64,000 nt of DNA from an uncultured virus (IMG/VR IMGVR_UViG_3300025151_004056) (lineage: Duplodnaviria; Heunggongvirae; Uroviricota; Caudoviricetes). Of the stretch, positions 32,772-63,954 are shown in pieces (position 1 is the first letter of the stretch; every line of letters begins with the position of its first letter). The notes under the pieces were generated by a model. The model was not told where the DNA came from. It saw only the letters and a program-made list of their open reading frames with translations, and searched no databases. The stretch lies in the IMG/VR virus record IMGVR_UViG_3300025151_004056, one strand, 5' to 3'. The position numbers and the translations under genes were made by a program.

Positions 32772-33164
32772 ATGACAGATTCAAAGAAACCAATCGACTT
32801 TTTCGTAAAACTGACAGAGACTCACCCTTTTATTTCGGTGTTGCAATACGCCGGGTCGGACTTTGTTGGCATCGTTCAGAACCGCGATGATCTTGTTACA
32901 ACTATATATGATTACGGTGCAATTGTTGATACAGAAAAACGATTGAAGTTTTTAGAGTTAGGAGACGTTTGGTGGTGGGAGTCGAATCGTCAAATACCTA
33001 TTCATTTATTTCTTAAACAAGAGTGGGCTATGTTTAAGCCTTTCTTAAGAACATTCAATAACAAATCATTGACATTGTTACATGGACCTGTTGTATCAAT
33101 GACTGACTTTCAAAAGAAAAGAGTTAAAAGAAAATCGATTACTTTGGTGAAGAGACCTTACTAA
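32772..33164 (+). CDS. Hypothetical protein
   Basis: 130 aa, WWWESNRQIPI; late box upstream. Confidence 0.65.
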   Translation: MTDSKKPIDFFVKLTETHPFISVLQYAGSDFVGIVQNRDDLVTTIYDYGAIVDTEKRLKFLELGDVWWWESNRQIPIHLFLKQEWAMFKPFLRTFNNKSLTLLHGPVVSMTDFQKKRVKRKSITLVKRPY

Positions 33165-33696
33165 GTCTTTTAGCCATCTTAGCAATTTGACGTTTCTTTT
33201 TTGCTCTGCGTTTCTTAGCCAATTCTAAACTAAGTTTGCTTTGCACACGTTCTTCAAACGTAACGCCTAATAGGTGATCATACTCATGCAAAAATACACG
33301 TGCTTGAATACCAGTAAGATGTTTTTCTTTAACGATTTCACCATCGATTTGTTGATATGAAACTACGCATTCAGGTTGTCTTGGGACATGCAACCATAGA
33401 TCAGGATAACTTAAGCACCCTTCTAAGAATAATTCCTTTTCTCCTCTAAGTTCATCTACTTGAGGATTAATAAAAGCCATTAACTTTTCATCTGTGCCCA
33501 TGATGAATATATTTTTCATTACGCCACACTGTGGTGCCGCTAAACCGATACCAGGATGATTAGGGTTAAACATCACTTTAGTCATTGCTTTAATTAAATC
33601 AGTTGGATCACCGTCAAGTTTAAAGTCCCATGGTTCACAAGGTTCCTTTAGTTTAGGATCATTCTCTGATAACAATGTTAAAGTAAGTTCTTCCAT
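33139..33696 (-). CDS. def: Peptide deformylase
   Basis: GIGLAAPQ, EGCLS, HEYDH motifs; basic C-terminal tail. Confidence 0.95.
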   Translation of the reverse strand: MEELTLTLLSENDPKLKEPCEPWDFKLDGDPTDLIKAMTKVMFNPNHPGIGLAAPQCGVMKNIFIMGTDEKLMAFINPQVDELRGEKELFLEGCLSYPDLWLHVPRQPECVVSYQQIDGEIVKEKHLTGIQARVFLHEYDHLLGVTFEERVQSKLSLELAKKRRAKKKRQIAKMAKRLSKVSSPK

Positions 33697-52187: not shown

Positions 52188-52877
52188 TTAATTAAGTTTT
52201 TTATTCTCTACTGGCCAACTATAAATGTAAGAGCCTGCAAAGTCTTTTACTAAGCAGAAGATTTGATCTTTATACTCATAAACACGAATATCTGCTTCAT
52301 ACCCGGGGAGGATTCTATCGAATCTCATTTCATAGTCTCCTCTTCGTTGCCCATATGTATCAACCATACCAGCAACAGCATTTAGTTCTCGTTGCTCGTT
52401 TGGTCCTTGATTTCCTAAATTAGCAAGAACATTAATTTCATCAATCGGAGTTGCTGTTAAAGATGCAAAAACTTTTTGACCCATCATACGAATAGCATCA
52501 TCTAAGTAACCGGGTAGATTCTCTACAGAATGAAACCTTGCTGTCACATCACCATGTGTTCTTAAGTCTTGTCTAATTTCTTGTGGTAGTGTATTTGGTT
52601 CTTCGATTGTTACACCTACACCTTCTTCCTCTTCTTCATCATCAACAGGAACAAGATCAGTCATTTCATCATCTGTGTATTGATAGATTAAGTCTTTGTT
52701 TTGAGCAAGTTGAGCCATGCGATCATCCATGCCCTGTATCTCACTTGTATCTACATTTGCGATGGCATCTACAGTATCATCTTTTGATACGACATCTCTG
52801 GATTTGATATCCATTGGAGGAATATTTCTTTTTTTCTCTAGGTCGTTTTCTTCTGTAAAGAAATCTTTGAATCTCAC
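52188..52877 (-). CDS. Hypothetical, possible internal head protein
   Basis: 229 aa, MRFKDFFTEE N-terminus. Confidence 0.65.
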   Translation of the reverse strand: MRFKDFFTEENDLEKKRNIPPMDIKSRDVVSKDDTVDAIANVDTSEIQGMDDRMAQLAQNKDLIYQYTDDEMTDLVPVDDEEEEEGVGVTIEEPNTLPQEIRQDLRTHGDVTARFHSVENLPGYLDDAIRMMGQKVFASLTATPIDEINVLANLGNQGPNEQRELNAVAGMVDTYGQRRGDYEMRFDRILPGYEADIRVYEYKDQIFCLVKDFAGSYIYSWPVENKKLN

Positions 52878-52886
52878 AACAAATCC

Positions 52887-53090
52887 TTATTTAGAATGAG
52901 GGGGTAGTTTTGCTTCTACAAACCACTCATGTTTTCTTTTAACCGGATTGTACTTTTTAAGTTTTAACTTAGTATTGTTTACGGTTAAATTTTTTGTTTT
53001 GATAGCAGTGTAATGATATGTATGATGATCTCTAGTTTCACCTTCGGGTATCAGATAAATCTTTGACTGTTTCTTTTTCTTGTCCGCCAT
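52887..53090 (-). CDS. rpmG: Ribosomal protein bL33 homolog (Cys-free type)
   Basis: KIYL..YHYTAIK..KLKLKKYNPVKRKHEWFVEAK matches the bL33 pattern (KLELKKFDP..RQHV.YKEAK). Confidence 0.8.
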   Translation of the reverse strand: MADKKKKQSKIYLIPEGETRDHHTYHYTAIKTKNLTVNNTKLKLKKYNPVKRKHEWFVEAKLPPHSK

Positions 53091-53187
53091 TGAATTTACC
53101 CTCTACTGCTTGTTGACTTACTACAAAGGTAAAACCACCACAGATCATCGGTAGCATCATTAGAATTAATACAAAAATTAGTTCCAC
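53038..53187 (-). CDS. Possible small TM peptide (49 aa, GTG start)
   Basis: MELIFVLILMMLPMICGGFTFVV...; alternative 33-aa frame at 53096..53197. Confidence 0.3.
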   Translation of the reverse strand: MELIFVLILMMLPMICGGFTFVVSQQAVEGKFNGGQEKETVKDLSDTRR

Positions 53188-53203: not shown

Positions 53204-53254
53204 TTAGCAACAAGTGCAGTTACAACATGAACAACAATTACATTTAGTATTCAT
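53204..53254 (-). CDS. Cys-rich micropeptide MNTKCNCCSCCNCTCC
   Basis: AAGGAG SD 6 nt before ATG; 8 Cys in 16 aa; TAA stop. Confidence 0.65.
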   Translation of the reverse strand: MNTKCNCCSCCNCTCC

Positions 53255-53264
53255 AGCAATCTCC

Positions 53265-55721
53265 TTAACTCTGATACTTCTCATATCCACTTAAACGTAA
53301 GATATCTTCTAACATATTGTCAGGTGCATGATCACGTGATTTGTCGTTTGCAACTTCTTCTGCGTGATCTCTATCTGCTTTAACATCTTTAACATCTACA
53401 TTCAGGTAATCTGCTAAATCTTCATCAGACATTTGACTAACAGACATTTCATCATGTGCATGTTTGCTTTCAGCGCCAACTAAGTCACCTACTTTTGCAG
53501 GTCTTCCTTTAGTCTTACCTGTGTTTTTCCATTGTCCGGCTTGACCTGTTTTATAGTCTCCGGCAAAATCAAATCCACCTGCTTTAGTTTCATCTATTTC
53601 TTCTTCTTTGATAGGATGACCTGGGTTGTAACCGCTAGTTGGTATCTCTCCGTGTTCATCTTTATAATCACTATACATTTGAGTAATTGTAGGACCTTCT
53701 GCAGGATAATTCATTGCGACCATGATATCATAGTAATCATCAAATCCAAGTGGGCCACCATATATATTAAATGGCTCTCCATTCAATATTGAATATTCTA
53801 CTTCTTTACCTGTTGTTGGGCTTTTAATTCTTTCGATTGGATAGTTTCCTTCTTCTAAATTATCAGGCTCGTTCTGTGTTTTGTAGATTGCTCTTTTAAC
53901 TCCTGGATGCTCAGACAATCCTGCTTTGATACCTTCGATTGCTTTAATTGCCCCAGTTTGATTACCGCCTTTATATCTAGGATCATTTAAAATGCCATAT
54001 GCCATTTTAATTTCTTTATCTGAAAAATCTTTTTCATCGATAACTGACTCTTCACCTAACAGTCCTGCTAAAGCAGTACCGATAGTTACTTTGTCTGCTG
54101 GTCTTGTATATGGTTCAGATTTCTTGTTTAATATTCTATCTGCTTCAATTCTTGAGGCATCTTTTGCATTTTTTGCTGAACTGGCTTTATTAAAATCATA
54201 TTGATTTTTGAACTTTTCGTACTCTCTAATTTCTGAGCCTAACTGTTTACGTTTTACTGGGTCACTTTCTTTTGGAATTTGCAGTTTACGATCTCTAATT
54301 CTTTGCTTGATTACTTCTTCATATGATTTAGCATTTCCAGAGGCTTGTTGTATTTGCTTTATGTCTGCATGAATTAAACTTCTCCAGTCATCATTTTCTG
54401 TTAAATCTAATTCTTGTTGCTTAGGACTTTCTATTTTATCTTTTAAGTCTTCTTCACTAAATGCGGCTAGAATGTCATCATATCTATGAGCCATAGTAGG
54501 ATGCTTCTCAGCAAATTCTTTCTCACTCATTTCTAATGCATCTACAACTAACTTATTATGTTTGCCTTCTTCTAAGTGTTCATCATCTGGATCGAACGGA
54601 TGAGGTCTAATTCTTTTGCCTGTCTTTGGATCATGGTTCTTGCCAGATTCTTCATCTCTTAACTCATCATCTTCAATACTACTGTTTTCTTTTTCTTCGT
54701 CTAATTCTTCCATTTCAGTAATAGACTTTGCCCATTGATCTAACTCATTAACTTCTTCGATTTCGTTAATGATATTACTATTAAGTTTGTTTAAGATAGG
54801 TAAAACACTTTCAATTCTTGGGTCGATTGATTCTTGTGAAAACATTTCTGCAATGCTTGTATGATCAGCATCGTCTTCCATAAGAGCAGGAGTCCATGAC
54901 TCAAAATAGTGGTTGTATCCTCTATGGCTTTGCATCTTTTGCAGTGTTTCTTTTATTGATCTATGATGTTTGACACCTTCTGCTATGAGTTGGGCGACAG
55001 ATTCATTAAATTCTCCTCTGCGTGTAGCACGAATAAATCCAGCCATCTTAGTATATTCTTCTACTAACTGAGTAATGTGCTTGCCTCTTTCATCATATGG
55101 AGTTCCACCTTCTGCTACGTGTCTACCATATACACGTGCAATGCCTGGCATTCTAGTTGGGACTGCAAAACGTTCGCCTTCAGTATTTTCAACAAAAATC
55201 TTGTGTACGTTTCTCCAACGTTGCTCTCCTTCACCGATTTGTCTGTCATGTTGAATTACAACTTTTACGTTAGGTATGTTATCGTTATATGATGTCATCT
55301 TATTAACAGCATGATAACCTTCTGTCATCTTTTCTTTCATTTTATAATAATCCCTCTGACGCATATCGTCACCTAAACGATCACTGTCATGTAAGCCAAA
55401 GTTTAGTTGTTTAGATAATGCCCATTGCTTTAAATGTTTTAGTAATCCAGACCAAGAATCATCATAATCCATGCCTTTTGTTTGTCCTGGAGGACTGCCT
55501 GCTTGATTATCATCATAGTATAGGTTTAATGATGATGTTTTATCAATAGTTGCCCATGCTTTACCGTAGTTTTCACCGTCTTTAATAAATTGAAACTCAA
55601 AAACATCTGCTGTTTCTGGATTAGTTCTTTCGTTTTTTGAGTCTTTAGGCGATGGTTTGTATCCACGAGTTTTTAAGATATCGTAGAGTCGTTTATTGAA
55701 GGATTCCTGATCAATTGCCAT
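53265..55721 (-). CDS. Large late protein downstream of terminase, probable head-associated protein
   Basis: 818 aa; modular acidic C-half with repeated (L/I)xE sites; ends EDILRLSGY. Confidence 0.65.
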   Translation of the reverse strand: MAIDQESFNKRLYDILKTRGYKPSPKDSKNERTNPETADVFEFQFIKDGENYGKAWATIDKTSSLNLYYDDNQAGSPPGQTKGMDYDDSWSGLLKHLKQWALSKQLNFGLHDSDRLGDDMRQRDYYKMKEKMTEGYHAVNKMTSYNDNIPNVKVVIQHDRQIGEGEQRWRNVHKIFVENTEGERFAVPTRMPGIARVYGRHVAEGGTPYDERGKHITQLVEEYTKMAGFIRATRRGEFNESVAQLIAEGVKHHRSIKETLQKMQSHRGYNHYFESWTPALMEDDADHTSIAEMFSQESIDPRIESVLPILNKLNSNIINEIEEVNELDQWAKSITEMEELDEEKENSSIEDDELRDEESGKNHDPKTGKRIRPHPFDPDDEHLEEGKHNKLVVDALEMSEKEFAEKHPTMAHRYDDILAAFSEEDLKDKIESPKQQELDLTENDDWRSLIHADIKQIQQASGNAKSYEEVIKQRIRDRKLQIPKESDPVKRKQLGSEIREYEKFKNQYDFNKASSAKNAKDASRIEADRILNKKSEPYTRPADKVTIGTALAGLLGEESVIDEKDFSDKEIKMAYGILNDPRYKGGNQTGAIKAIEGIKAGLSEHPGVKRAIYKTQNEPDNLEEGNYPIERIKSPTTGKEVEYSILNGEPFNIYGGPLGFDDYYDIMVAMNYPAEGPTITQMYSDYKDEHGEIPTSGYNPGHPIKEEEIDETKAGGFDFAGDYKTGQAGQWKNTGKTKGRPAKVGDLVGAESKHAHDEMSVSQMSDEDLADYLNVDVKDVKADRDHAEEVANDKSRDHAPDNMLEDILRLSGYEKYQS

Positions 55722-55738
55722 ACTATTATTTATCTCTT

Positions 55739-57301
55739 TTAGTTAATCACAGCAAAGAACGGCAATGGAGCAACCATCTCATCATGGTCTCGCATATGTT
55801 CAGTTAAGTCACTGTGAAAGTCTGTAATGTCTTGTAGAATGCGTACTACTAGCAATGTAGCCATAACTAAGTCATCGTTATCTCCGATCTTTGCTTGATA
55901 ACTACCACCAGATGCAACGAATGTTTTTAACTCACTAATTAATGCTTTGCTTCTTACATTCATTTTCTTGCTTTCCATCAGTGTTTTAAACTTAGCACAT
56001 GCGGCTAGTTTTACTTTCTGTGTTGTGTTGTATCCTCTACGTTTTTTACCTTTTTCACTTAAGAAAATACCTTGAATATTTGCTTCACCGTATTCTGCTA
56101 GTGAGATTAATGCGGCTTCTCCGATAGAATTGTTTTCTAGTGAGTAGTATATGTTGTTTGGTTCGCCTGTTTCTTCTGCTATGTATTGTGTAATTTGTCC
56201 TAATAACTTAATTTGTCTAGGAATATCTGTTTTGTTGTCTTTCCATTCACCAACTTGTGTAGTAGTGTTTGCTTCAAAAATTTGTATTGCGGCTGGATCT
56301 CCGCCTGTACCCAATGATGGATCTAGTCCTACACAGTATACCATACCTTTCTTGGGCTTTTGAAACCATCTGACTTGACCCATTCTATCTGTAGGTTCTA
56401 CTGATTCTAACATGATTAACGTATTAGGATTGATTAATGTTTCATCTGCAATTAAGAATTCACAACCGATTTCACGTGCAAATCTGTCGTCTCCTAACTG
56501 TGCTTTGATTTCTTCTGCCCACTTCTCATCACGTCCGGGTTGCTCATGCCAATATGATCTAAAAGGTTTAAATCCATTAACACCTAGTTCTGTTTCTTCT
56601 CCGTTAGCATCTGTATTTTTATTTGCTTGTTTCCAAATGAGAGCAAACTGATCTTCATCAGAGTTCGGAGTAGATGTGATGATTGCTTTACCACCTGTTG
56701 CTAGTGTTGGTGTGATAGAAGTCCAAAACTGTTCGGCAATTGTAGGTCTTACGAATGCAAACTCATCCAGATACAAGAGTGTGATCGACATACCACGACC
56801 CGTATTCTCTGTAGTCGTTGCTGACACAATACGAGAGCCATTCTCAAAGTCTAACGATCCTTTGTTGTATGTAACAACACCTGCTTTGATATGTGTAGGG
56901 CAGTTTTCATATGCATATCTGATACGTTGCATAATCTCTTGTGAACCTGTGTACTTATGTGCGGCAATTAGAATAGTAGCATCAGGTACAAACATAGCAT
57001 ACCAAAGCAAATAGCCTGCGGCTGATGTAGACTTACCTGACTGTCTAGGCATAAGAGCAATTGAATATCTATAATTATGATAAGTGTCGATTAAACGTTC
57101 TTGGTATTCATAAGGATGATATTGAATTGAACCTTGCGTTGGATGCTGAATATAAAAGAAGTTATCCATAAAGTATAGATAACCAGTTTCAGGATCACAA
57201 CATTTTACAAAGTCATCAATCTCTGTTTGATTTTTAAATGCTGTTTTCTTATAAGCAGGTTTGACTAATTCGCCCGTTCCGCTTGTATTAAAGTTGCTCA
57301 T
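55739..57301 (-). CDS. terL: Terminase large subunit (gp17-like)
   Basis: YEYQ, PRQSGKS, YLDEFAF, ITSTPN, GLDPSLG, ENNSIG, DDLVMA. Confidence 0.97.
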   Translation of the reverse strand: MSNFNTSGTGELVKPAYKKTAFKNQTEIDDFVKCCDPETGYLYFMDNFFYIQHPTQGSIQYHPYEYQERLIDTYHNYRYSIALMPRQSGKSTSAAGYLLWYAMFVPDATILIAAHKYTGSQEIMQRIRYAYENCPTHIKAGVVTYNKGSLDFENGSRIVSATTTENTGRGMSITLLYLDEFAFVRPTIAEQFWTSITPTLATGGKAIITSTPNSDEDQFALIWKQANKNTDANGEETELGVNGFKPFRSYWHEQPGRDEKWAEEIKAQLGDDRFAREIGCEFLIADETLINPNTLIMLESVEPTDRMGQVRWFQKPKKGMVYCVGLDPSLGTGGDPAAIQIFEANTTTQVGEWKDNKTDIPRQIKLLGQITQYIAEETGEPNNIYYSLENNSIGEAALISLAEYGEANIQGIFLSEKGKKRRGYNTTQKVKLAACAKFKTLMESKKMNVRSKALISELKTFVASGGSYQAKIGDNDDLVMATLLVVRILQDITDFHSDLTEHMRDHDEMVAPLPFFAVIN

Positions 57302-61634: not shown

Positions 61635-62744
61635 TTAGGGCTCGTAGAAGACGCAAATTTCGTCTGCAACTTTCTCAACCTCTGCATCAGTTAACTCAGG
61701 ATACATAGGCAAACTTAATAGTGATCGTGTAAGCAGTGTACTAGTAGACATAAGATCAGGCTTCTCTAAATTTTCTGCAATTGGAAGTTCACTCAATGCT
61801 GTCTTATAATGTATTTTTGTTTCTACTTCTTTATGATTCAACCAGGCTTCTAATTGCTGACGTTCGGCGCCTGCATTAACTACAAACTTTGAATCAGCAT
61901 GAGTTTCAAACCCTTCACTTAAACATTTTAATGGTTGGATATGTTTAAATCTGTCTATATAGTATTCTCTAATTTGCTTTCTACGTGCTTGCCATTCATC
62001 TATATACTTTGTTCTTACCATTAAATGAGAACAATCTAGTTCACTCATTTTAGAGTTTGTACCAGAATAAAAATGATATGGCTTTCCGTTATCTTTCCAT
62101 TGACTAGCAAATTCATATAATGCTTGATTGTTTGTAACGATGGCTCCGCCGTTTCCTGAAGCATTTAAATTTTTAGTAGGATCAAAACTAATTGCCATTG
62201 CAGTTCCTATGTTACCGTCTGCGATCAACCAATGTTGTGCTCCGTCTACAATTGCAATGTTGTTGTTTAATACTGCTACACCATTATCACTTTCAACTGC
62301 TACTGTAGGGGCGCCGAATAAACCAACATGACATTCAATCTTTTGTAATTCATCTTCTGGTTGTGGAAGAATAATACCATTTCTATCAGTGTCTACAAGT
62401 TCTACGTTTAATCCAGCACTTAAGAATGCGTTCATTGTTGCAGGATATGTCAGATTAGGAACTCTGATTGTTCTGTAAACGTCTTTATCATATTCCCATG
62501 ATGTGTAAGGATCTTGGTCTGGAGACGTATCTCTTTCATAACGTGCAATTATCTCTAATGCTTGTGTTCCACTATGACACAGTATGACATAATGTGCCTT
62601 TGTTTTTATAGATAACCAATCTGCAAATTTCTTTGAATACTCACCGTCATTAAGACTGCCACTAGAAAGAACTGAATCGGTTGCATCAAGCAATTCATCT
62701 TTAATATTTTTATATTGTCTATCTAATCCAAAATACTTAACCAT
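61635..62744 (-). CDS. DegT/DnrJ/EryC1/StrS PLP-dependent sugar aminotransferase
   Basis: SGTQAL, TYPAT, DGAQ, SFDPTKNL..GNGGA, GTNSKM, LSLPMYPEL. Confidence 0.92.
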   Translation of the reverse strand: MVKYFGLDRQYKNIKDELLDATDSVLSSGSLNDGEYSKKFADWLSIKTKAHYVILCHSGTQALEIIARYERDTSPDQDPYTSWEYDKDVYRTIRVPNLTYPATMNAFLSAGLNVELVDTDRNGIILPQPEDELQKIECHVGLFGAPTVAVESDNGVAVLNNNIAIVDGAQHWLIADGNIGTAMAISFDPTKNLNASGNGGAIVTNNQALYEFASQWKDNGKPYHFYSGTNSKMSELDCSHLMVRTKYIDEWQARRKQIREYYIDRFKHIQPLKCLSEGFETHADSKFVVNAGAERQQLEAWLNHKEVETKIHYKTALSELPIAENLEKPDLMSTSTLLTRSLLSLPMYPELTDAEVEKVADEICVFYEP

Positions 62745-63954
62745 GTTCTTTTAGCATTGTATGTAATTCTTCATTACAATCAACTAATGCTTGTCCTCTG
62801 TGTTCGTCTAACAAATTATTAAACTTAATATATTCTTGTAACATGTTTATGTCTTTGCTTTCTTCTTGGCACTTATCTTTTAATGCATTTATTGTATCTT
62901 TAAAAATCTGTGATTGCCATTTACAATCATTTAACATCCACATAAATATTTTTGCAAAGGCTTTTTGTTTAAAGTCTTTAGGTAGATAATCGATATTCAA
63001 GTGTTGCGGGTCTTGTAACAATATCGGTCTTATATCAATTAAAGGTTTGTTTTCTTTAATGTTGATGTCTTCAAAGTATTTAAACAGATCAACTATCTTG
63101 TTTAAATTTCCTATTTGAATAACTGGCGTCGCCCAAAGTTTAACGTTTTGCATTGTAATTAGTTTTTGTATGCTTTCATCAATCTGACTGAACTTGCTAG
63201 GATATCTCAAATACTCTTGTACCCCTTCGTATCCGTCAATGCTTAATTGTAGTATGACTGATTTAAAGTTGGGCAAATACTGATAGAATTTTGGATTGGT
63301 GTTTGTAAGATTTGTATTAATAATTAATGTAATATCTTTACTTTTGTCTAACTCTATTAACTCCTGTAATATTTCAAAGTTCTTTTCGATGACAGTAGGT
63401 TCTCCACCTGTCATATAAATTGTATCGATATTATCTATTTGACTTTTAATGTTTGAATCAAACGTATCTGTTTCCCACCAGTAATTACTTTCTACATCAA
63501 ACTGCGGATAAAATCTAGTGTATTCTGTATTATTAATTTCTAAGATTTCTTTTTCTATCTGACTACTATTTGTAGGATTGCAACTTCTACATTTTAGATT
63601 ACATAGATTACCAAAACGCAAATCAAAAAATTTAATTTTAAGATCACTTTTAGTTGTAGTTGGAATAATGTCTTTGTATTGTTCGTTGTTGATTAGTCTG
63701 CGACTTTGACGACCATACTTTTCATTGTGATAACATACATCGCATCCAGAGATATACTCTCCGTCTAACATCTTTTGTCTTAAATTAACAAAGTCTTTGC
63801 TGTTGTAGATATCATCTATATTATCATAGCCTAAGTTAAACTTAGTACCATCATCTTTTGTAATATAGTCATGTGAAATACAACAAGGCTTGATTGCACC
63901 GTCGGGGTCAACTGTAATGTTTACCCAAGGCAAAACACAAAACGACTCCGTCAT
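62737..63954 (-). CDS. Radical SAM protein with N-terminal SPASM/twitch-like domain
   Basis: CNLKCRSC (CxxxCxxC), TGGEP, NTN, SIDG; N-term CVLPW..PCC..CDVC. Confidence 0.92.
   Translation of the reverse strand: MTESFCVLPWVNITVDPDGAIKPCCISHDYITKDDGTKFNLGYDNIDDIYNSKDFVNLRQKMLDGEYISGCDVCYHNEKYGRQSRRLINNEQYKDIIPTTTKSDLKIKFFDLRFGNLCNLKCRSCNPTNSSQIEKEILEINNTEYTRFYPQFDVESNYWWETDTFDSNIKSQIDNIDTIYMTGGEPTVIEKNFEILQELIELDKSKDITLIINTNLTNTNPKFYQYLPNFKSVILQLSIDGYEGVQEYLRYPSKFSQIDESIQKLITMQNVKLWATPVIQIGNLNKIVDLFKYFEDINIKENKPLIDIRPILLQDPQHLNIDYLPKDFKQKAFAKIFMWMLNDCKWQSQIFKDTINALKDKCQEESKDINMLQEYIKFNNLLDEHRGQALVDCNEELHTMLKEHG

Follow-up and report, generated by a model that had tools for sequence, protein, structure and literature searches.

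A variant bL33 gene in a marine T4-like phage and its counterpart in bacteria of the SAR86 order

Introduction

Ribosomal protein genes carried by phages have been described as a class from uncultivated aquatic viruses (Mizuno et al., 2019, Nat Commun 10:752, PMC6375957). The text of that study reports bL33 on 12 uncultivated aquatic viral contigs (pN/pS, 0.09), gives three host calls for bL33 on the basis of k-mers (i.e., two Alphaproteobacteria and one SAR86), and infers at least two bL33 transfers between hosts and viruses. It also shows uptake of phage bS21 and bL12 into E. coli ribosomes, counts bL33 among the exchangeable, loosely bound ribosomal proteins, and argues that phages of this class supply an exchangeable protein during infection. 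A paper on pelagimyophages mentions S21 and L12, and L33 has no occurrence in it. A cultivated example is the jumbo cyanophage PhiMa05, for which a later report describes bL33 as one of six encoded ribosomal proteins, together with two Vampirovibrio genomes that contain those six proteins only inside PhiMa05-like prophages (ISME J 2026, PMC13157829).

Here we describe a bL33 gene in a 64-kb stretch of DNA from an uncultured virus (IMG/VR record IMGVR_UViG_3300025151_004056), which is referred to below, at its full length, as the window. The gene adds a member to the class of phage ribosomal proteins that Mizuno et al. (2019) described. Within the reach of our literature search, two findings are new, namely the variant family that it shares with SAR86 and the rpmG displacement in half of the SAR86 order; the SAR86 variant was not found in the full-text literature on SAR86 rpmG/L33 and on phage-driven xenologous displacement of ribosomal proteins.

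Results

Phage genome and local gene string

The window is phage throughout, with structural, packaging, and replication genes on both sides of the bL33 gene. Its products include a 1202-aa tail sheath, tail tube proteins, a head closure protein, a large terminase subunit (TerL), and a holin, as well as a set of replication products (i.e., a DnaB-like helicase, the products of other helicase genes, a primase, UvsX, UvsY, a gp32-like SSB, and a peptide deformylase). The bL33 gene is part of a tightly packed, co-directional string that runs from the terminase through an 818-aa protein, a 16-aa mini-ORF, and bL33 to a 229-aa acidic protein (Table 1). No PHROG or Pfam family matched the 818-aa and 229-aa neighbors. 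The order TerL, 818-aa protein, bL33 is conserved across loci L001 to L019, and the 229-aa acidic protein lies downstream of bL33 in most of them.

Table 1. Features of the window that bear on the bL33 gene (positions are those of the window)
Feature	Position	Strand	Basis or remark
Large terminase subunit (TerL)	55739..57301	-	phrog_36964, E = 4.3e-105; heads the local gene string
818-aa protein, no known family	53265..55721	-	ORF call; upstream neighbor in the co-directional string
Cys-rich mini-ORF (16 aa, 10 Cys, AAGGAG site)	53204..53254	-	Upstream of bL33; read from sequence
Shine-Dalgarno-like GAGGG	53099..53103	-	8 nt 5' of the bL33 ATG; read from sequence
bL33 (rpmG-like) CDS, variant type	52887..53090	-	67 aa, ATG start; ORF call
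229-aa acidic protein, no known family	52188..52877	-	Starts 9 nt after the bL33 stop
Phage peptide deformylase	33139..33696	-	Replication module
Radical SAM/SPASM enzymes and DegT-type aminotransferase	61635..63954	-	Radical SAM/SPASM enzymes at 62737..63954

The window TerL is 48 to 49% identical to those of Pseudomonas phage PA5oct, Sinorhizobium phage Phosso, and Agrobacterium phage Atu_ph07, and the tail sheath is 41 to 46% identical to those of the same three jumbo phages. The nearest related record (G001) is a 34.7-kb fragment without a bL33 gene and is rated 10% complete, which would fit a genome of a few hundred kilobases. The source of the window is a marine T4-like myovirus, probably of the jumbo kind. 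An assignment to HTVC008M-like pelagimyophages of SAR11 was considered and dropped, because the nearest relatives of both TerL and the tail sheath are those of PA5oct, Atu_ph07, and Phosso. S21 or another additional ribosomal protein was absent from the 8 small ORFs scanned out of 13 (the rest being bL33 and four others), and no tRNA gene was found in the 64-kb window.

The product of the mini-ORF upstream of bL33 ends in CCSCCNCTCC. Seven of the 68 related viral loci (L005, L007, L008, L011, L012, L014, and L016) have a relative ending in CCxCCNCTCC upstream of bL33, and four of these seven relatives start 55 to 58 nt upstream and end a few bases before the bL33 start. The mini-ORF is a variable accessory gene of the bL33 string; its product may bind metal, or may serve as a precursor for the nearby radical SAM/SPASM enzymes. 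Such enzymes and the DegT-type aminotransferase recur near bL33 in L028, L184, and L186.

Identity of the bL33 gene product

A sequence-only reading of this ORF had proposed a phage-encoded bL33 that lacks Cys, carries PEGETRDHHT as an insertion, ends in PPHSK, and is preceded by a GAGGG Shine-Dalgarno site. The family assignment and each of these elements were borne out, with PEGETRDHHT at residues 15 to 24 and PPHSK as the tail, but the extent of the insertion was not. Compared with the canonical bL33 of the SAR86 order, the window protein has four additional residues in loop 1 (R20-H23), two in loop 2, and four near the C terminus. PEGETRDHHT is therefore not an insertion as a whole, since only R20-H23 is inserted in loop 1. 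The variant family also has a longer N terminus than canonical bL33. None of the 67 residues is Cys, so that the two CxxC knuckles (i.e., four Cys) of the Zn-ribbon (C+) type are missing, and the viral and SAR86 relatives have zero or one Cys each.

An HMM search, which the same reading had named as a check, matched NCBIfam TIGR01023 (rpmG_bact) over residues 1 to 61 at 28 bits (cutoff, 23.95), and Pfam PF00471 was matched at 24 bits (E = 4.9e-5), 1 bit short of its cutoff of 25. All 30 matches in a PDB sequence search with the window protein were bL33 chains, as were all 27 matches obtained with a profile of 27 relatives (best E = 1.7e-6). The core motif K-[YF]-[DN]-P-x-x-[RK]-x-H-x-x-[FY]-x-E is present, and KKYNPVKRKHEWFVEAK of the window aligns to KKFDPVVRKHVIYTEAK of canonical bL33. 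An AF2 model built on the alignment of the relatives (mean pLDDT, 69.8) has strands at residues 9 to 15, 27 to 31, 43 to 48, and 53 to 60, which form the small beta ribbon typical of bL33. The top 50 Foldseek matches of this model were all chains of ribosome entries (best E = 4.8e-3; E values above 0.001 are weak here because the protein is so small), and the target-normalized TM-score against bacterial bL33 chains was 0.74 to 0.82 (rmsd, about 2.2 Å). The fold matches include 6v39_0, 7unr_5, 8rd8_bk, 9h91_1, and 6spb_3, which the PDB sequence and profile searches name as bL33. Searches of phage collections returned nothing: the protein had no family in PHROGs and no tblastn match in 50,697 phage records, among which no isolate relative was seen, and 6 kb of window DNA had no megablast match in phage records. 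Taken together with the selection on its viral copies described below, these data confirm that the window ORF is an intact, selected phage gene for ribosomal protein bL33.

Viral relatives, gene contexts, and selection

A search of a protein collection yielded 180 relatives (E ≤ 0.01), the best 120 of which are 66 to 97% identical to the window protein and come largely from marine metagenomes. In IMG/VR, we found 68 close loci, all with an intact reading frame, and 22 more distant ones; the variant family is thus present on at least 90 IMG/VR contigs and in several gene contexts. Besides the terminase string, at least four phage contexts occur among the IMG/VR loci. The bL33 gene adjoins SSB/UvsX/UvsY genes in one of these contexts, is flanked by glycosyltransferase and peptide deformylase genes in another, and in others lies between an endolysin/nuclease pair and QueD or between Hsp20 and a ClpS-like gene that is followed by Suf-like genes (one phage lineage; L032, L039, L045, L047, L049, and L054). 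The Suf-like genes of this lineage (phrog_12033 twice, an ABC ATPase, and phrog_12787, within 5 to 10 kb around bL33) resemble Fe-S cluster assembly genes and may form an auxiliary module. Among the distant types, the bL33 gene of one myovirus contig (L235) lies within a gp13-gp14-gp15 module, with the small-terminase gene on one side and, on the other, a nuclease gene ahead of the large-terminase gene; others adjoin MazG, endolysin, or radical SAM genes on myovirus contigs. The P0175 type of bL33 was not found in IMG/VR.

The viral bL33 gene is under purifying selection. The median dN/dS of 330 viral pairs was 0.084 (maximum, 0.22), with dS saturated (median, 1.3) and dN at 0.12. The corresponding dN/dS of cellular copies was 0.011. 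The viral copies are thus about eightfold less constrained, which leaves room for a shifted function. The viral set has 23 invariant columns, including columns of the loop and the tail.

The same variant in SAR86

A scan of 185,579 species genomes (one per species) detected 364 relatives of the window bL33. The best 80 of the 364 were all in records titled SAR86 cluster, Gammaproteobacteria, or Proteobacteria, and they matched over their full length at 72 to 80% identity, several on contigs longer than 1 Mb. In our alignment, the SAR86 variant is 73 to 77% identical to the window protein. The loop IPEGETRD.HTYHY and the tail PPHS(K) are common to the SAR86 variant and the phage bL33, and the columns that are invariant in the viral set, loop 1 and tail included, are all kept in SAR86. 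The two sets differ in that all SAR86 copies have KKFNP, versus KKYNP in most viral copies.

The surroundings of the SAR86 variant are cellular (e.g., an MFS transporter, glycosyl hydrolases, and an indoleamine dioxygenase), and no recognizable prophage lies around the gene. Between the flanking ORFs of the 68 viral loci and the SAR86 chromosomal flanks, no match was found except for frames antisense to bL33 at four loci. Each of four variant-type SAR86 genomes checked has a single bL33 place, occupied by the variant, which argues that this type works in ribosomes. A few SAR86 assemblies carry two variant copies (JAYQKD010000004.1 [L122 and L136], G710:C4, G624, and G655), which lie 5.8 kb apart on one contig in some and on two contigs in others; these are candidates for real duplications or for assembly artifacts.

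When an even sample of 151 Gammaproteobacteria was searched with the family profile, two genomes scored 127 bits and the next best scored 37 bits, with the core alone matching. Among 401 Pseudomonadota, a match reaching the tail was found only in a SAR86 genome. (The first tally takes in the unpublished genomes G044 and G146, and the second takes in the unpublished genome G531.) In our searches, the variant family was confined to contigs of marine myoviruses and, as the cellular bL33, to about half of the SAR86 order. Pseudomonadota and viruses occur together in ESM Atlas clusters close to a distant member (P0269), so that other cellular holders may exist.

Canonical and variant rpmG in the SAR86 order

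We surveyed 266 genomes of the order to which G002 belongs (i.e., the SAR86 order). The variant bL33 was detected in 132 of them and the canonical bL33 in 87 (PF00471, 58 to 65 bits); neither type was detected in 47, and no genome had both. The canonical protein (51 aa) is encoded directly behind rpmB at all 10 loci examined (L216 to L218 and L220 to L226), where the rpmB stop and the rpmG start are adjacent. The same placement behind rpmB was seen in 28 of 28 other Gammaproteobacteria. The variant was near rpmB at none of 87 loci, and no rpmG remnant was found behind rpmB in five of five variant-type genomes (L187 to L191), which have a convergent gene there instead. The bL28 proteins of the canonical and variant groups are 68 to 76% identical, whereas their bL33 proteins are 39 to 41% identical. 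This pattern reads as the signature of gene displacement rather than of gradual divergence. The variant gene of SAR86 sits among sugar-metabolism genes. The two main variant subclades have downstream neighbor families in common, which suggests one ancestral locus.

Phylogenetic analysis

In a first tree (104 rows and 67 columns), the SAR86 and viral sequences grouped together in one clade (100/100), with a stem of 1.34 changes per column leading to it. All 35 distinct SAR86 sequences fell into a single clade (99/89), which was joined (98/91) by the group of the window (10 viral rows; 98/92); the other 29 viral rows lay outside. A 78-row tree that included distant members placed the canonical bL33 of the SAR86 order among other Gammaproteobacteria (97/93) and the SAR86 variant clade (99/91) within successive viral or unassigned clades (98/90 and 96/80). 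Phage sequences nested within host diversity, the arrangement taken as a mark of acquisition from a host, were not what we found; the SAR86 clade lies among viral clades. Approximately unbiased (AU) tests rejected neither viral monophyly (p = 0.445) nor a tree in which SAR86 branches outside every viral and unassigned row (p = 0.139; log-likelihood difference, 12.5), and the trees therefore do not fix the direction of transfer. Long-branch attraction is a real risk with 67 columns and fast-evolving phage rows. No viral sequence fell inside the SAR86 crown in these trees, which indicates that the transfer is old.

Expression signals

The motif TATAAATA, which we take to be the T4 late-promoter motif, was not enriched in the window (3 sites versus 7.4 expected), and scans for sigma-70-like promoters and terminator-like structures gave results at chance level. 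The position of bL33, co-directional behind the terminase gene, is the sole pointer to late expression, at which it hints. An SD-like motif precedes bL33 at 14 of the 68 related viral loci.

At 13 of the 68 viral loci (L028 to L031, L033 to L035, L055, L057 to L059, L062, and L063), the end of TATAAATA lies exactly 5 nt ahead of the bL33 ATG, and an SD motif is missing. An SD-like motif was found at none of 80 loci of the SAR86 variant, and three of the four SAR86 loci displayed (L079, L132, and L100) have a TATAAT -10-like box about 12 nt before the ATG, which reads TGTGTATAAT in two of them. Such motifs or boxes so close to the ATG would give leaderless or nearly leaderless bL33 mRNAs. Contigs from three marine metatranscriptome runs (one sample) and from one other run cover parts of positions 52714 to 52976 and flanking sequence, with almost nil RNA-library cover of positions 52973 to 53081, and contigs of this kind cannot show transcription or strand.

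Host prediction

To our knowledge, no phage has been isolated on SAR86. When 20 kb of window DNA was compared with the SAR86-order genomes, the bL33 gene was the only part to match (71 to 79% nucleotide identity; 72 of 266 genomes), with one exception. Genome G782 includes contigs that resemble the window helicase (69%) and terminase (66%) at the nucleotide level, and its TerL relatives are 55 to 58% identical to the window TerL at the protein level. At least three contigs of a related phage (C4, C6, and C19; loci L211, L213, and L246) are present in this genome, which has a single, cell-type bL33. They could provide a lead to a direct phage-host link and could equally be a binning artifact.

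The G+C content of the window (36.5%) is close to that of the SAR86 loci (32.9%). The window peptide deformylase has no SAR86 signal (G002 gave no match at E = 1e-15) and is 32 to 41% identical to the gammaproteobacterial peptide deformylases that passed this threshold (26 of 151 genomes); it probably represents an old phage lineage of the enzyme. Our best guess for the host, based mainly on bL33 itself, is a SAR86 bacterium with the variant bL33; a different lineage that has this bL33 type could, in principle, be the present host. The variant architecture would then serve as a lineage tag that ties at least 68 IMG/VR contigs of uncultured marine myoviruses (possibly jumbo phages) to SAR86.

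Discussion

Origin of the shared variant

Judged by their sequences, the phage and SAR86 bL33 genes share one origin. For the direction in which the gene moved, we give a transfer from the SAR86 stem to phages close to an even chance. A transfer from phages to SAR86 is also a serious possibility, though we would put it below even, and the remaining odds fall to a third party. The phage-to-SAR86 route draws on the mutual exclusivity of the canonical and variant types, the loss of rpmG from behind rpmB, the conservation of bL28, and the position of the SAR86 clade inside a largely phage-borne radiation. Long-branch attraction caused by fast phage evolution, unsampled cellular holders, and relocation followed by rapid divergence within SAR86 could still account for these observations in place of a phage origin. 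It is conceivable, with somewhat less than even probability, that the variant bL33 evolved in marine T4-like phages, passed to the ancestor of about half of the SAR86 order, and displaced rpmG there.

If this scenario is true, abundant ocean bacteria build their ribosomes with a core protein derived from phages, and the window gene belongs to the donor lineage. A phage-to-cell transfer would make viruses donors of ribosome parts to free-living bacteria, not just borrowers. The nearest relatives of the bL33 gene that replaces rpmG in SAR86 are phage genes, and the rpmG split gives a clear-cut natural example of ribosomal gene displacement within one bacterial order.

Function in infection

The explanation that we consider likely is that the window gene is a marine myovirus variant of bL33, of common origin with that of SAR86, which provides SAR86 ribosomes with a like-for-like protein during infection. 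In an infected SAR86 cell, the phage would make a near-equivalent of the host bL33. This protein would sit where bL33 normally sits on the 50S subunit, close to the E site, and a loosely bound, exchangeable protein would thereby be kept in supply to ribosomes while host gene expression fails. Both the entry into the host 50S subunit and the supply role are inferred here by analogy with the phage ribosomal proteins described previously.

A role away from the ribosome is the improbable alternative that fares best. The phage protein would in that case be a small RNA-binding protein derived from bL33, which, for example, binds phage RNA or titrates a host factor. The higher dN/dS of the viral copies, the varied phage contexts of the gene, and the near-fixed difference between KKYNP and KKFNP are in keeping with such a role. 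However, the columns invariant in viruses, including those of loop 1 and the tail, are kept in SAR86 bL33 as a shared ribosome binding site predicts, and the protein has no extra domain and a full predicted bL33 fold.

The sequence-only reading had suggested an analogy with zinc limitation and a remodeling of host ribosomes late in infection. Cys-free bL33 paralogs replace Zn-binding bL33 under zinc limitation in other bacteria, and a zinc-sparing or ribosome-remodeling paralog that replaces a Zn-binding host bL33 would fit both the Cys-free window protein and the Cys-rich mini-ORF upstream of it. We nevertheless regard this possibility as very unlikely. All 57 canonical proteobacterial bL33 sequences extracted were Cys-free (28 of 28 from other Gammaproteobacteria, 19 of 19 from Alphaproteobacteria, and 10 of 10 from the SAR86 order), and the zinc analogy has no footing because a Cys-free bL33 is the norm in the proteobacteria examined. 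Furthermore, the variant-type SAR86 genomes hold one Cys-free bL33 place (four of four) and hence contain no Zn form that could be replaced. The phage bL33 is not a zinc-sparing paralog. Remodeling is unproven; the loop insertion and the tail are common to SAR86, and the phage protein, at 73 to 77% identity, appears nearly equivalent to that of the host and probably builds no differently behaving ribosome.

Finally, although cellular contamination sometimes accounts for ribosomal protein genes on "viral" contigs, we give almost no weight to the view that the gene is a passenger (i.e., a functionless recent fragment of a host or part of a cellular contig mistaken for phage), against which stand the phage content of the whole window, the intact frame at every one of the 68 IMG/VR loci, the saturated dS at low dN among viral copies, and the lack of any viral locus with SAR86 chromosomal flanks.

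Comparison with known systems

The closest cellular counterpart of the window gene is the SAR86 variant (L079, L132, and L142), with 73 to 77% protein and 71 to 79% nucleotide identity, the loop-1 insertion, the PPHS(K) tail, and no Cys. Unlike the phage copy, this variant is a cellular, single-copy gene that has no SD motif and a TGTGTATAAT-like -10 box; it is also about eight times more constrained than the viral copies and has KKFNP in place of KKYNP. The canonical gammaproteobacterial bL33 resembles the window protein in its fold, its core motif (K-[YF]-[DN]-P-x-x-[RK]-x-H), and the absence of Cys, but it is shorter (50 to 66 aa in other Gammaproteobacteria and 51 aa in the SAR86 order), has neither the loop insertion nor the tail, and is 39 to 48% identical. 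The zinc-independent (C-) bL33 proteins of Zur regulons, such as the mycobacterial AltRP and the Bacillus RpmG, are induced by a lack of zinc and coexist with a Cys-containing copy. Their likeness to the window protein lies in being Cys-free. No Cys-containing copy is present in the phage or in the SAR86 lineage, in which one bL33 place was found in four of four genomes and both forms of the order are Cys-free, in contrast to the coexistence of C- and C+ copies in the Zur type.

The bS21 of Pelagibacter phage HTVC008M, as presented in the text of Mizuno et al. (2019), is likewise a small, exchangeable, host-like protein of a marine T4-like myovirus. It is a different protein of the other subunit and was shown there to enter ribosomes, whereas the window bL33 is known from its sequence. 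The bS21 tree in that study places the phage gene inside host diversity, consistent with a host-to-phage transfer, whereas in our bL33 trees a cellular clade lies among phages. The PhiMa05-like prophages of Vampirovibrio, as reported (ISME J 2026, PMC13157829), offer a precedent for a cell that relies on phage-borne genes for ribosomal proteins; unlike those genes, the SAR86 gene is not inside a recognizable prophage, and the window bL33 had no tblastn match in the phage collection. We saw no account of the variant architecture, or of its match to the bL33 of SAR86 itself, in the text of Mizuno et al. (2019), where the trees appear only as figures. The viral bL33 genes of that study and the one described here are alike in lying on marine viral contigs and in being under purifying selection (pN/pS of 0.09 there versus dN/dS of 0.084 here). 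Whereas 12 contigs were reported there, the family described here counts 68 close IMG/VR loci plus 22 that are more distant, spread over several gene contexts.
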